64,000 bases of DNA from Escherichia coli. Lineage in GTDB: Bacteria > Pseudomonadota > Gammaproteobacteria > Enterobacterales > Enterobacteriaceae. The translations under genes were made by a program, and so were the position numbers. The notes beneath the pieces are model-generated. The model made no database searches, was not told the origin of the DNA, and saw only the letters and a program-made list of their open reading frames with translations. Positions 254 to 63,251 of the stretch are shown here, one piece after another. The stretch is taken from assembly GCF_024502345.1 (NCBI RefSeq), contig NZ_JALDNN010000001.1. The stretch is one strand, 5' to 3'. Every line of letters begins with the position of its first letter. The stretch's first letter is position 1.

Positions 254-288
254 TAGGCCGGATAGGGCGTTCACGCCGCATCCGGCAG
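254..288. repeat. REP (repetitive extragenic palindrome) element
   Basis: taggccggatagggcgttcacgccgcatccggcag matches the canonical REP palindrome GCCGGATG..GCGT; intergenic yhdP-tldD. Confidence 0.75.
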
Positions 289-318: not shown

Positions 319-1779
<1,461 letters not shown>

Positions 1780-1827
1780 TAATTTCAGTATTTTCAGAAG
1801 GATAATTAATCTTTCTACGTGCACGAA

Positions 1828-1868
1828 CGGTCCCCTCGCTCCTCTGGGGTTAGGGTGAGGGGAACCCG
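1828..1868. repeat. GC-rich imperfect palindrome, box C-like intergenic repeat (TCCCCTCGCTC..GGGTGAGGGGAA)
   Basis: Inverted repeat tcccctc/gaggggaa; nearly identical arms recur at 20128..20160. Confidence 0.5.
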
Positions 1869-1906
1869 TTGGCACAGGTTTGTACAACGTAACAGTACAA
1901 TATGAA

Positions 1907-2836
1907 TTACTTCTCTTTCCCGCGCCCGTGCATCTCCTGAAACAATTTACCGACCTCAACAAAATAATCCGTCAGCGAGTTGATCACGACCTGTACCTTC
2001 AGCGGCAGCTTATCTTTTTCGGTATATAACGCATAAACCGGGCGTGGATCTGACTGATAACGCGGCAGCAGGATCTCCAGCTCCCCACGATTGATCTCGT
2101 TGATCACCCACATCAGCGGCACGTAGGCGATCCCGGCACCCGCCGTTAGCCAGCGCACCAGCGTCATCGGATCATTAGTCACAAATCTCCCTTGCGGGAT
2201 CAGGCGAGTCGAGATCCCTTCCGGTGCGATCAGTTCAAATTCATTGTCGGGCCGCACGCTGTATTCAAGCCATGAATGGCTACTTAAATCGGCGGGTTTT
2301 TCCGGTATGCCGTATTGTGTGAGATAGCTTTTCGCGGCGCACACCACCATTGGCATCGCGCCAAGACGGCGGGAAAACAGGCTGGAATCCTGCAACGCGC
2401 CGACGCGGATCACCACATCCAGACCGTCGGCAATCAGGTCGGGGGCTGGAATTCCGGTAACCAGATTGACGCTCAAACCTGGGTATTCTTTCAGCATTTT
2501 TGCTGTCAGCCCGGCGAGAACATTTTGTGCCATAGTTGAAGAACAGCCAATGCGTAGCGTCCCGATGGGGGTGTTATTGAAGGCATACAGTTGCTCATGA
2601 ACATCCTGCACTTCATGAAGCATCCGACGGCAGCCCTGGTAGTAAATTCTGCCGGCTTCGGTCAGGCCAATGCTGCGTGTGCTACGGTTTAACAGCTTTA
2701 CCTGCAACTCATCTTCCAGTTTTGACACCGTCTGACTGATGGACGAAACGCTCATCTGTAGCTGTCTGGCGGCGGCGGTAAAAGAGCCAAATTCAACTAC
2801 TTTGGCAAACACCGACATGCGTTTTAGTCGTTCCAT
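1907..2836 (-). CDS. aaeR: LysR-type transcriptional activator of aaeXAB
   Basis: ORF track 309 aa with N-terminal LysR HTH (MSVFAKVVEFGSFTAAARQLQMSVSSISQ); divergent from aaeXAB. Confidence 0.93.
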   Translation of the reverse strand: MERLKRMSVFAKVVEFGSFTAAARQLQMSVSSISQTVSKLEDELQVKLLNRSTRSIGLTEAGRIYYQGCRRMLHEVQDVHEQLYAFNNTPIGTLRIGCSSTMAQNVLAGLTAKMLKEYPGLSVNLVTGIPAPDLIADGLDVVIRVGALQDSSLFSRRLGAMPMVVCAAKSYLTQYGIPEKPADLSSHSWLEYSVRPDNEFELIAPEGISTRLIPQGRFVTNDPMTLVRWLTAGAGIAYVPLMWVINEINRGELEILLPRYQSDPRPVYALYTEKDKLPLKVQVVINSLTDYFVEVGKLFQEMHGRGKEK

Positions 2837-19228: not shown

Positions 19229-20122
19229 ATGGCAACGAATTTACGTGGCGTAATGGCTGCACTCCTGACTCCTTTTGATCAACAACAAGCACTGGATAAA
19301 GCGAGTCTGCGCCGCCTGGTTCAGTTCAATATTCAGCAGGGCATTGACGGTTTATACGTGGGTGGTTCGACCGGCGAAGCCTTTGTACAAAGCCTTTCCG
19401 AGCGTGAACAGGTACTGGAAATCGTCGCCGAAGAGGCGAAAGGTAAGATTAAACTCATCGCCCACGTCGGTTGCGTCAGCACCGCCGAAAGCCAACAACT
19501 TGCGGCATCGGCTAAACGTTATGGCTTCGATGCCGTCTCCGCCGTCACACCGTTCTACTATCCTTTCAGCTTTGAAGAACACTGCGATCACTATCGGGCA
19601 ATTATTGATTCGGCGGATGGTTTGCCGATGGTGGTGTACAACATTCCAGCCCTGAGCGGGGTAAAACTGACCCTGGATCAGATCAACACCTTGGTTACGC
19701 TGCCTGGTGTCGGCGCGCTGAAACAGACCTCTGGCGATCTCTATCAGATGGAACAGATCCGTCGTGAACATCCTGATCTGGTGCTCTATAACGGTTACGA
19801 CGAAATCTTCGCTTCCGGCTTGCTGGCGGGCGCAGACGGCGGTATCGGCAGTACTTACAATATCATGGGCTGGCGCTATCAGGGGATCGTGAAGGCGCTG
19901 AAAGAAGGCGATATCCAGACCGCGCAGAAACTGCAAACTGAGTGCAATAAAGTCATTGATTTACTGATCAAAACGGGCGTATTCCGCGGCCTGAAAACTG
20001 TTCTGCATTATATGGATGTTGTTTCTGTGCCGCTGTGCCGCAAACCGTTTGGTCCGGTAGATGAAAAATATCTGCCAGAACTGAAGGCGCTGGCCCAGCA
20101 GTTGATGCAAGAGCGCGGGTGA
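19229..20122 (+). CDS. nanA: N-acetylneuraminate lyase
   Basis: ORF track 297 aa. Confidence 0.96.
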
Positions 20123-20127
20123 GTTGT

Positions 20128-20160
20128 TTCCCCTCGCTCGCCCCTACCGGGTGAGGGGAA
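20128..20160. repeat. GC-rich imperfect palindrome, same family as 1828..1868
   Basis: ttcccctcgctc..gggtgaggggaa in the nanA-nanT spacer. Confidence 0.5.
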
Positions 20161-20230
20161 ATAAACGCATCTGTACCCTACAATTTTCATACCAAAGCGT
20201 GTGGGCATCGCCCACCGCGGGAGACTCACA

Positions 20231-21721
20231 ATGAGTACTACAACCCAGAATATCCCGTGGTATCGCCATCTCAATCGTGCACAATGGCGGGCATTTTCCG
20301 TTGCCTGGTTGGGATATCTGCTTGACGGTTTTGATTTCGTTTTAATCGCCCTGGTACTCACCGAAGTACAAGGTGAATTCGGGCTGACGACGGTGCAGGC
20401 GGCAAGTCTGATCTCCGCAGCCTTTATCTCTCGCTGGTTCGGCGGCCTGATGCTCGGCGCTATGGGTGACCGCTACGGGCGTCGTCTGGCAATGGTCACC
20501 AGCATCGTTCTCTTCTCGGCCGGGACGCTGGCCTGCGGCTTTGCGCCAGGCTACATCACCATGTTTATCGCTCGTCTGGTCATCGGCATGGGGATGGCGG
20601 GTGAATACGGTTCCAGCGCCACCTATGTCATTGAAAGCTGGCCAAAACATCTGCGTAACAAAGCCAGTGGCTTTCTGATTTCAGGCTTCTCTGTGGGGGC
20701 CGTCGTTGCCGCTCAGGTCTACAGCTTGGTGGTTCCGGTCTGGGGCTGGCGTGCGCTGTTCTTTATCGGCATTTTGCCAATCATCTTTGCTCTCTGGCTG
20801 CGTAAAAACATCCCGGAAGCGGAAGACTGGAAAGAGAAACACGCAGGTAAAGCACCAGTACGCACAATGGTGGATATTCTCTACCGTGGTGAACATCGCG
20901 TTGCCAATATCGTAATGACACTGGCGGCGGCTACTGCGCTGTGGTTCTGCTTCGCCGGTAACCTGCAAAATGCCGCGATCGTCGCTGTTCTTGGGCTGTT
21001 ATGCGCCGCAATCTTTATCAGCTTTATGGTGCAGAGTACGGGCAAACGCTGGCCAACTGGCGTAATGCTGATGGTGGTCGTGTTGTTTGCTTTCCTCTAC
21101 TCATGGCCGATTCAGGCGCTGCTGCCAACGTATCTGAAAACCGATCTGGCTTATAACCCGCATACTGTCGCCAATGTGCTGTTCTTTAGTGGCTTTGGCG
21201 CGGCGGTGGGGTGCTGCGTCGGTGGCTTCCTCGGTGACTGGCTGGGAACCCGCAAAGCGTACGTTTGTAGTCTGTTGGCCTCGCAGCTGCTGATTATTCC
21301 GGTATTTGCGATTGGCGGTGCAAACGTCTGGGTGCTCGGTCTGTTACTGTTCTTCCAGCAAATGCTTGGACAAGGGATCGCCGGGATCTTACCAAAACTG
21401 ATTGGCGGTTATTTCGATACCGACCAGCGTGCAGCGGGCCTGGGCTTTACCTACAACGTTGGCGCATTGGGCGGTGCACTGGCCCCAATCATCGGCGCGT
21501 TGATCGCTCAACGTCTGGATCTGGGTACTGCGCTGGCATCGCTCTCGTTCAGTCTGACATTTGTGGTGATCCTGCTGATTGGTCTGGATATGCCTTCCCG
21601 CGTTCAGCGTTGGCTGCGCCTGGAAGCATTGCGTACTCATGACGCTATCGACGGCAAACCATTTAGCGGTGCCGTGCCATTTGGCAGCGCCAAAAACGAT
21701 TTAGTCAAAACCAAAAGTTAA
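20231..21721 (+). CDS. nanT: sialic acid:H+ symporter (MFS)
   Basis: 496 aa from [22 protein letters not shown]...; track ORF trimmed by 10 codons. Confidence 0.95.
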
Positions 21722-34779: not shown

Positions 34780-34891
34780 CCCCGGCTAGACCGGGGTGCG
34801 CGAATACTGCGCCAACACCAGGGAAATCTTGGCTGCGCCGTAAATTATTATGATGAGTTACAAGGGCACAGCACTGTTTTTCAGGCCGCAC
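34771..34891 (-). ncRNA. arcZ: ArcZ small regulatory RNA (SraH/RyhA)
   Basis: Minus strand reads GTGCGGCCTGAAAAACAGTGCTGTGCCC...GCGCAGTATTCGCGCACCCCGGTCTAGCCGGGGTCATTTTTT, matching ArcZ as I recall it; its terminator overlaps the arcB stop codon. Confidence 0.85.
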
Positions 34892-43215: not shown

Positions 43216-44202
43216 TTACACTACGCCTGCACGCAGTAAATCATGCATATGTAACACACCGAGTAAATGGTCGCCATCGGCAACCATCACGGAGGTGATA
43301 TGGCGGGACTGCATTAAGTTCAGTGCCTCAACGGCCAGAATGCCAGGGCGCACGCGTATTCCCCCCGGCGTCATCACATCGGCAATACTTAACTGACGAA
43401 CATCCACGCCCATATCGAAGACACGGCGTAAATCACCGTCGGTAAAGATGCCTTCAATCATCATATTGTCATCGCAAATGACAGTCATACCAAGATTTTT
43501 GCGGGTAACTTCCAGCAACGCGTCACGCAGACTGGCCGTTTTCTTAACATGCGGGATCTCATCGCCCGTATGCATAATATCGTTTACGCGCAGCAGAAGT
43601 TTACGACCCAGTGCGCCGCCTGGGTGTGAGAGCGCAAAATCTTCAGCAGTAAAGCCGCGTGCTTTTAACAGCGCGACAGCGAGGGCATCGCCCATAACCA
43701 GCGTGGCGGTGGTGCTGCTGGTCGGTGCCAGCCCTAACGGACAGGCTTCTTTCGCTACTTTAACACACAGATGCACATCTGCGGCGCGCGCCATGCTGCT
43801 CTCCGGGCGACCGGTGATGCAGATTAACGGTACGTGAAGACGCTTAAGCACTGGAATTAAGGCAGTGATTTCGCTGGATTCACCTGAGTTAGAGATAGCA
43901 ATCACCACATCCTGTGGGGTGACCATGCCTAAATCACCATGCGCGGCTTCACCAGGATGGACGAAAAATGAAGGTGTACCGGTGCTGGCAAACGTTGCGG
44001 CCATTTTGCGCCCGATGTGCCCCGATTTCCCCATCCCCATGACGACAACTTTCCCTTTACACCAGAACATCTTTTCACAGGCAAGCGTGAAATTCTGATT
44101 GATGTATTGATCAAGCTCCGCCAGGCATTCACGTTCAATCGCCAGGACTTCTTTACCTGCTTGCTGAAAGTCAAAACCCGGTTGTAACTCTACGTGCGAC
44201 AT
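43216..44202 (-). CDS. kdsD: D-arabinose 5-phosphate isomerase
   Basis: 328 aa from MSHVELQPGFDFQQAGKEVL...; SIS plus tandem CBS domains. Confidence 0.94.
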   Translation of the reverse strand: MSHVELQPGFDFQQAGKEVLAIERECLAELDQYINQNFTLACEKMFWCKGKVVVMGMGKSGHIGRKMAATFASTGTPSFFVHPGEAAHGDLGMVTPQDVVIAISNSGESSEITALIPVLKRLHVPLICITGRPESSMARAADVHLCVKVAKEACPLGLAPTSSTTATLVMGDALAVALLKARGFTAEDFALSHPGGALGRKLLLRVNDIMHTGDEIPHVKKTASLRDALLEVTRKNLGMTVICDDNMMIEGIFTDGDLRRVFDMGVDVRQLSIADVMTPGGIRVRPGILAVEALNLMQSRHITSVMVADGDHLLGVLHMHDLLRAGVV

Positions 44203-48505: not shown

Positions 48506-48664
48506 ATTTTTTCAGGCCGGATATGGCGTTAACCGCCTGTCCGGCAAACCTGCCTGCAAGTCGAGCCTTGTCTGATTTATCAGCGAGGCTTTTTGCTTAT
48601 TTATGCCAGCGCAACTTTGCTCTAAGATGTTTCGCTGGTTTATTAACTGATGATTGAAGATCCC

Positions 48665-56360: not shown

Positions 56361-56460
56361 AATCTCGCGCTAACAACCTGGAATCGAGCCGTCATACTAC
56401 GGCGCAACGCCCTATAAAGTAAACGATGACCCTTCGGGAACTTCAGGGTAAAATGACTAT

Positions 56461-56513
56461 CAAAATGTGAATTGTAGCTGACCTGGGACTTGTACCCGGG
56501 TCGGTATTTTTTT
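56461..56513 (+). ncRNA. graL: candidate GraL, the greA leader RNA ended by an attenuator hairpin
   Basis: -10-like TAAAAT at 56449..56454, then hairpin gacctggg..cccgggtc and a T7 run about 95 nt upstream of the greA ATG. Confidence 0.4.
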
Positions 56514-63164: not shown

Positions 63165-63251
63165 GCCGAGGTGGTGGAATTGGTAGACACGCTACCTTGA
63201 GGTGGTAGTGCCCAATAGGGCTTACGGGTTCAAGTCCCGTCCTCGGTACCA
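63165..63251 (+). tRNA. leuU: tRNA-Leu, anticodon GAG
   Basis: 87 nt GCCGAGGTGGTGGAATTGGTAGACACGCTACCTTGAGGTGGTAG...GGTACCA with long variable arm and encoded CCA; 14 nt after secG. Confidence 0.95.

Follow-up and report, generated by a model that had tools for sequence, protein, structure and literature searches.

A decayed BoxC element in the convergent tldD/aaeR gap of Escherichia coli

The hairpin in the convergent gap between tldD and aaeR was analyzed within a window of 64,000 nucleotides of Escherichia coli DNA (the whole stretch under study) and, judged by its sequence and orthology, is a real but ordinary member of the BoxC repeat family, the family assignment having already been published for this exact locus. 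The most probable reading, given a probability of roughly 85%, is that positions 1819-1875 hold a resident BoxC which has decayed to a tolerated, largely neutral hairpin relic that does not terminate transcription, and that the hairpin between nanA and nanT is most likely a second relic. What is new is local, namely the decay of this allele, how frequent it is and the allelic series to which it belongs, the likely relic in the nanA-nanT gap, and the interchange of BoxC and REP elements at the same positions.

Sequence, fold and family assignment

The two arms of the element, TCCCCTCGCTC (1831-1841) and GGGTGAGGGGAA (1853-1864), and the 11-nt spacer between them, CTCTGGGGTTA (1842-1852), were read directly in the window. 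The element lies in a gap of 127 nt that separates the stop codons of two convergent genes, and it begins 40 nt past the stop of tldD and 31 nt past that of aaeR. The initial annotation had described an imperfect hairpin at this place; the arms are as it described them, and a folded segment of 66 nt gave strong structures on both strands, with -32.6 kcal/mol (z -3.1) on the plus strand and -29.8 kcal/mol (z -4.1) on the minus strand. The palindrome is wider than first reported, however, as the inverted flanks GTGCACGAACGG and CCGTTGGCAC carry the stem out to the limits given in Table 1. The order on the plus strand, C block followed by G block, is the sense of the tldD mRNA, and the tldD transcript bears the G-rich sense of the element.

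Table 1. Coordinates of the BoxC element, its parts, the neighboring genes and other features of the window
Feature	Position	Strand	Basis or remark
tldD CDS	334..1779	+	Names from strain 104 annotation and MG1655
Whole decayed BoxC, interrupted 22-bp stem-loop	1819..1875	+	Fold, alignment A1; MG1655 ortholog is TMECO 14 / HPGQ 37
5' flank GTGCACGAACGG, outer stem arm	1819..1830	+	Fold; ten MG1655 BoxC loci compared
Block 1 (C block) CCCCTCGCTCC	1832..1842	+	One C>T against consensus CCCTCNCCC and against MG1655 CCCCTCGCCCC
GGGG, leftover of block 2	1846..1849	+	TGAGGG (6 bp) of MG1655 missing in the window (alignment A1)
Loop 2 TTA, type A signature of BoxC/TMECO	1850..1852	+	Sequence and published catalogue
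Block 3 (second G block) GGGTGAGGGG, intact, now paired with block 1	1853..1862	+	Sequence, fold
3' flank ACCCGTTGGCAC, outer stem arm complementary to 1819-1830	1864..1875	+	Fold; MG1655 BoxC loci compared
aaeR CDS, convergent with tldD	1907..2836	-	Names from strain 104 annotation and MG1655
nanA-nanT hairpin, two-block, BoxC-like: UUUCCCCUCGCUCG / loop CCCCUAC / CGGGUGAGGGGAAA	20127..20161	+	Sequence, fold, other genera
ArcZ sRNA	34784-34891	-	Rfam, above gathering score
greA leader	56391-56512	+	Rfam, above gathering score
tRNA	63165-63248	+	Rfam, above gathering score

Both arms had also been said to recur in a second element, given as 20128..20160, and the same two arms were indeed found at 20129-20160, with TCCCCTCGCTC at 20129-20139, a spacer of 9 nt, and GGGTGAGGGGAA at 20149-20160. 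The pattern CCCCTCGCTC-N5-25-GGTGAGGGG has exactly two matches in the 64 kb, these being the tldD/aaeR and nanA-nanT sites, and had none in 100 dinucleotide-preserving shuffles of the window. That the two hairpins are unrelated chance palindromes has nothing in its favor beyond their short length; it is contradicted by the shuffles and by the occurrence of the family at tens of copies per genome, is refuted for the tldD element by its orthology to a catalogued repeat, and retains a practically negligible probability.

The window runs opposite to the coordinates of MG1655, where it corresponds to about 3.33-3.392 Mb. Under the name TMECO, which they equate with the former BoxC/PIT, Holder et al. 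2015 (PMC4666352) list 23 copies in MG1655 in their Table 1, no. 14 being CCCTCGCCCCTTTGGGGTGAGGGTTAGGGTGAGGGG at 3,390,529-3,390,494, and Kaplan et al. 2016 (PMC5100583) place HPGQ no. 37 of group HPG1 between aaeR and tldD in theirs. The MG1655 ortholog of the window element, CCCTCGCCCCTTTGGGGTGAGGGTTAGGGTGAGGGG, equals TMECO no. 14 in both sequence and coordinates, and the flanks of the element are identical to those in the MG1655 aaeR/tldD gap, which establishes orthology to the catalogued copy. The proposal that the hairpin is a dispersed, box C-like intergenic repeat is thus correct, because the element is orthologous to a published BoxC/PIT copy and the family has many copies per genome. 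The TMECO consensus (PMC4666352) is CCCTCNCCC-N3-6-GGGNGAGGG-N3-GGGNGAGGG, in which a C block is followed by two G blocks in direct repeat, and the MG1655 tldD/aaeR gap shows this same order in reading GGTCCCCTCGCCCCTTTGGGGTGAGGGTTAGGGTGAGGGGAACC.

Further copies were sought by BLAST. Per E. coli genome, a query of 54 nt from the window matched at a median of 12 places and the corresponding MG1655 allele at 18, nearly all of them chromosomal. Ten MG1655 copies fetched by their published coordinates were all intergenic. These ten type A copies share the core, a 5' flank of approximately GCAC.GGACGGTC and a 3' flank of GAAC...GCAC, which together form an outer stem, and the tldD copy bears both flanks, GTGCACGAACGGTC on the 5' side and GAACCCGTTGGCAC on the 3' side, like the nine others. 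A longer BoxC palindrome of about 56 bp was already described in the 1990s, and the repeat has been catalogued since then. The BoxC/PIT elements are also treated by Hoyne & Maher (2000, 2002). Within tandem gene pairs of MG1655 the G-rich sense of BoxC falls on the mRNA at adk and ycjD/fabI and the C-rich sense at pstA-pstB and yihS-yihR, in agreement with the reported lack of bias in orientation relative to transcription (Holder 2015, Kaplan 2016).

Annotation resources gave no repeat call here: no repeat is annotated at the tldD/aaeR or the nanA-nanT site in the RefSeq record of MG1655, Rfam at its gathering threshold has no match at the element, and a permissive Rfam scan of 1700-2000 returned only chance-level matches (E 6.8 and 9.8). 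A query of 301 bp across the gap was 100% identical to E. coli strain 104 (NZ_CP029164.1) and was present in 5,425 of 5,426 complete E. coli genomes.

The suggested comparison with the published repeats gave a BoxC ortholog on the one hand and no similarity to the REP (PU) consensus on the other. REP/BIME elements resemble BoxC in being short GC-rich extragenic palindromes that lie after stop codons and in convergent gaps, but their sequences are dissimilar (compare window 255-287, GCCGGATAGGGCGTTCACGCCGCATCCGG). Palindromes of the REP type occur in the window at that position, in the yhdP/tldD gap, and at 48514-48546 (a 79% copy); none of the repeat families in the window links the BoxC element to these two copies, and the sequences are unrelated by eye. 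REP elements have an associated transposase, RAYT. We know of no transposase associated with BoxC.

The decayed allele and its allelic series

Relative to TMECO no. 14 (PMC4666352), the window element has kept the locus, the flanks, block 1, the TTA of loop 2, block 3, the outer inverted flanks and the intergenic setting, but it lacks block 2 and departs from the consensus. The differences from MG1655 are a 6-bp deletion that takes out the middle G block and two substitutions, C>T in block 1 and T>C in loop 1. Block 1 reads CCCTCGCTC, with one mismatch to the consensus CCCTCNCCC, against CCCTCGCCC in the MG1655 ortholog; where block 2 (GGGNGAGGG) should follow 3-6 nt past block 1, only the four G residues at 1846-1849 are left; and the TTA at 1850-1852 is followed by GGGTGAGGG at 1853-1861, as expected of block 3. 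Consequently the TMECO consensus pattern, which matches the MG1655 ortholog, has no match in the 64-kb window, and a four-G-tract pattern (tracts of G3 or more, loops of 1-7 nt), which likewise matches the MG1655 ortholog, has none at 1819-1875. The only motif of four G tracts (G4 type) in the window lies elsewhere, at 44011-44038 on the minus strand (GGGGATGGGGAAATCGGGGCACATCGGG).

The element in seven E. coli strains was compared in one alignment (A1). Strain 9000 carries a canonical BoxC with GGGGAGAGGG as block 2, and MG1655 has GGGGTGAGGG in its place; the window, a BL21 derivative and 19AR1321 share the 6-bp deletion and have lost block 2; FDAARGOS_1266 has a 12-bp deletion; and in N96 the whole tldD/aaeR gap, equivalent to window 1780-1906, is replaced by one of 81 nt that contains a REP element and from which BoxC is gone. 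The C>T change in block 1 is common to the window and BL21, while at the middle base of loop 1 MG1655 has T, BL21 has A, and the window, 19AR1321 and FDAARGOS_1266 have C. Among the 5,425 complete E. coli genomes, the shares of the allele classes, estimated from BLAST identity bands, were about 50% for the 6-bp deletion, about 38% for the full-length element and about 10% for shorter forms. About 10 of the 5,425 genomes are without most of the usual tldD/aaeR gap.

All of the alleles seen, the 6-bp and 12-bp deletions and the REP replacement included, retain a stem-loop, with folding energies of -32 to -36 kcal/mol. As the two G blocks repeat each other directly at a distance of 12 nt, replication slippage between them is suggested as the simplest cause of the deletions; Holder 2015 (PMC4666352) likewise names slippage as a possible cause and reports mutated or degenerated TMECOs in many strains. 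The proposed history is that a 6-bp deletion by slippage between the two G blocks would have removed block 2, and the two substitutions would have come afterwards; triplex and G4 potential would thereby have been lost, leaving a plain stem-loop. After a deletion of this kind the C block still finds a G block as its partner, so that the hairpin is retained automatically and no selection is required.

The same loss bears on the question of whether the element acts through its DNA. As single strands in vitro, BoxC sequences adopt a hairpin, a purine-motif intrastrand triplex or a G-quadruplex (PMC4666352, PMC5100583), and Kaplan 2016 (PMC5100583) describes a K+-dependent G4 and Mg2+-dependent alternative folds. 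A non-B structure, either a triplex or a switch between G-quadruplex and hairpin, could on this basis regulate the neighboring genes or promote local variation. A stable triplex (CD, NMR) and a K+-dependent G4 are reported for the full BoxC in vitro (PMC4666352, PMC5100583), and TMECO loci were more variable than control gaps (PMC4666352); BoxC sites are described as hypervariable between strains (PMC4666352), and the tldD/aaeR locus is itself polymorphic. Even for the full element, however, DMS footprinting did not detect the triplex in vivo, and in double-stranded DNA the duplex wins (PMC4666352). In the window allele, two of the three matched blocks of the triplex architecture are retained, and the G-quadruplex-hairpin-duplex switch of HPG1, to which the orthologous HPGQ no. 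37 belongs and with which the window element shares a C-rich arm followed by G tracts (PMC5100583), needs four G3 tracts (GGGAGAGGGTTAGGGTGAGGG) against the three found here. With block 2 lost, neither a three-block triplex nor an intramolecular G4 is any longer possible, the G4 state is gone, and the hairpin, or its duplex, is what is left. A regulatory or mutagenic role of the DNA structure is accordingly improbable for this allele.

The hairpin between nanA and nanT

The second hairpin is located between the nanA stop codon (20120-20122) and the nanT ATG (20231). A folded segment of 61 nt gave -36.2 kcal/mol (z -6.8) on the plus strand and -19.1 kcal/mol (z -1.2) on the minus strand, the difference being due to two G.U wobble pairs in the hairpin. 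This asymmetry was considered as a sign of selection at the RNA level and set aside as not significant, as it rests on two changes and about half of the possible transitions preserve pairing. The hairpin is absent from Table 1 of Holder (PMC4666352) and from Table 1 of Kaplan (PMC5100583), and in place of the three-block consensus it has CCCTCGCTC and GGGTGAGGG alone, 9 nt apart. Across E. coli it is nearly invariant.

The nanA-nanT gap was compared in nine other genera, which were fetched via their NanA homologs. Pseudocitrobacter has an inverted pair of full BoxC elements, a reversed one of type A and a forward one of type B, and Kluyvera has a degenerate BoxC; the gap is occupied by REP-like elements in Citrobacter, Enterobacter, Yokenella, Trabulsiella and Superficieibacter, and by other hairpins in Salmonella and K. 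aerogenes. The right arm of the E. coli hairpin and its downstream flank (GGGTGAGGGGA...AAACGCATC) align positionally with block 3 in the forward BoxC of Pseudocitrobacter, while the left arm opens with CCCCTC, like the reversed one, and aligns loosely with a BoxC block. Inverted TMECO pairs are described as losing their inner parts, after which a hairpin remains (Holder 2015, PMC4666352). Since the corresponding place in Pseudocitrobacter is occupied by a full inverted BoxC pair, the E. coli hairpin at 20127-20161 is probably the collapsed relic of a BoxC or of such a pair, a reading held with moderate confidence on account of the loose alignment of the left arm. Its link to the tldD element is plausible but indirect. 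Gene conversion between the tldD and nanA sites, which have 11 + 12 nt in common, was considered and rejected, as the single C>T change relative to MG1655 already explains the extra identity.

Shortly before the nanT ATG, within 20196-20233, there is a small separate hairpin, GTGGGCATCGCCCAC (20201-20215), accompanied by CGCGGGAGACTCAC. E. coli, Salmonella, Kluyvera, K. aerogenes, Pseudocitrobacter and Superficieibacter all conserve it, and the base of its stem shows a compensatory change (G-C, A-T, G.T). A Rho termination region is reported at MG1655 3,372,577, 3 nt upstream of the nanT ATG (Adams 2021, PMC7815308), and the region of this hairpin may be a nanT leader or attenuator.

Transcription past the element and the wider family

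The initial annotation had suggested that the hairpin after tldD could act as a terminator, which, for two convergent genes, might be intrinsic and bidirectional. Its position, 40 nt and 31 nt from the two stops in a convergent gap, would suit such a role, the GC-rich stem-loop downstream of a stop codon is a feature shared with intrinsic terminators, and Kaplan et al. 2016 (PMC5100583) consider termination plausible for some copies. Unlike an intrinsic terminator, however, the tldD element has no U-tract after the stem on either strand, the tail being AACCCGUUGGCAC on the plus strand and ACCGUUCGUGCAC on the minus strand; the nanA hairpin likewise has none, and a terminator scan called neither. 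PIT elements had no promoter or terminator activity according to Hoyne & Maher 2002, in the form in which that work is cited in PMC4666352.

Transcription in MG1655 points the same way. Supplementary file 2 of Adams et al. 2021 (PMC7815308) gives a Rho termination region with its top coordinate at MG1655 3,390,148 (-), antisense inside aaeR (Rho score 5.99, p 5.5e-18), which is about 350 nt beyond BoxC on the tldD strand. Without bicyclomycin, coverage drops across this coordinate from 148 to 26; in its presence the values are 231 upstream and 243 downstream (PMC7815308). As bicyclomycin brings the downstream coverage back in full, transcription on the tldD strand continues through BoxC and is terminated past it in a Rho-dependent way, although the analysis was based on windows of 800 nt and is compatible with partial termination at the hairpin. 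For two further convergent BoxC gaps, zntA/tusA (MG1655 3,607,955 -) and fimH/gntP (4,551,233 +), the Rho regions are again antisense within the facing gene (PMC7815308), which implies read-through of BoxC as at tldD/aaeR; in these two cases the read-through transcripts bear the opposite, C-rich orientation of the element.

In a curated Term-seq list for MG1655, no 3' end falls on the tldD or the nanA hairpin, and no entry bears the name tldD, aaeR or adk. This absence is weak evidence, because MG1655 carries the full BoxC and the nan operon is presumably poorly expressed, through NanR repression, under the conditions in which the 3'-end data were obtained. Taken together, the lack of a U-tract, the negative published assays and the read-through to a downstream Rho region leave the terminator suggestion without support; the tldD hairpin probably does not act as a terminator, and an intrinsic one serving both genes is highly improbable. 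Under the preferred reading of a neutral relic, the element would be transcribed within the tldD 3' region without ending transcription, termination would follow by Rho about 350 nt further on, as in MG1655, and the hairpin would at most slow 3'-to-5' exonucleases.

Such slowing could also be the function of the element. In this case the hairpin would stabilize the 3' end of the mRNA, trimming after Rho termination would stop at the stem, and the tldD mRNA and the nanA segment relative to nanT would be protected. Several observations are in line with this: a strong stem-loop (-32 to -36 kcal/mol) is present in every allele seen; in other strains and genera the corresponding place behind the stop codon is taken by different palindromic repeats; in MG1655 both hairpins have a Rho region downstream of them, at 3,390,148 and 3,372,577 (PMC7815308); and the nanA hairpin is far more stable on the sense strand. 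They have to be weighed against the curated Term-seq list, in which the missing ends include those of adk, a gene also followed by a BoxC, against the occurrence of BoxC in both orientations within tandem pairs, for which the literature reports no bias, and against the fact that the hairpin survives automatically when one of the two direct G blocks is lost. A stabilizing role of the tldD hairpin, which the initial annotation had offered as the other option, is possible, but as an explanation of the element it is considered rather unlikely. The retention of a hairpin in all tldD/aaeR alleles and in the nanA-nanT and adk-hemH gaps could nevertheless reflect a 3' stem-loop that is selected rather than neutral.

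In E. coli the adk/hemH gap exists in two unrelated versions, about 54% of genomes having the MG1655 type with BoxC and about 46% diverging right after the adk stop. Two gaps of the other type that were fetched are shorter and carry a different hairpin. The BoxC-less allele is a wholly different gap, so that no clean empty site from which insertion boundaries or target duplications could be read was found at adk/hemH. The MG1655 version of this gap also has a terminator-like hairpin, AGGCCGGATATTCATTCGGCCTTTT.

Beyond E. coli, TMECO has been reported in 262 proteobacterial genomes (Holder 2015, PMC4666352). One genome per species was scanned for the 16-mer GGGTTAGGGTGAGGGG, which gave at least 120 matches within about 25 genomes. 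Among the matches listed, nearly all share the architecture TCCCCTCTCCC-loop-GGGAGAGGG-TTA-GGGTGAGGGG, and this near-identical core is multi-copy in Proteobacteria and, with the exact GGGTTAGGGTGAGGGG, also outside them in the Chloroflexi MAG SB0662_bin_28, Verrucomicrobia, Planctomycetes (Pirellulales), Thermodesulfobacteriota and Aerophobetes. Also among the matches listed, each lineage carries the BoxC core within a longer repeat of its own, and often a second BoxC-like unit forms an inverted pair with it. A Clostridia MAG was matched as well among those listed. A match in Desulfurococcales was discarded, as it is without a hairpin and looks like chance. It may be, though this is a speculative reading that we regard as rather unlikely, that the BoxC core is the conserved recognition module in a family of non-autonomous mobile elements that spans several phyla and is mobilized by a widely distributed, putative enzyme; if so, the tldD and nanA elements would be decaying fossils of that family in E. 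coli.

Within the literature searched, no functional study of BoxC/TMECO after 2016 was found, and no cellular function of BoxC has been shown. The present finding carries little weight for the window itself; its interest lies in BoxC as a strikingly conserved repeat without a known function or mode of spread. The exchange of different palindromic repeats at the same positions after stop codons may point to selection for a 3' stem-loop or, alternatively, to insertion targeted to hairpins, and the full-length, 6-bp-deleted, 12-bp-deleted and REP-replaced alleles constitute a natural series with which it may be asked whether BoxC acts at tldD/aaeR.
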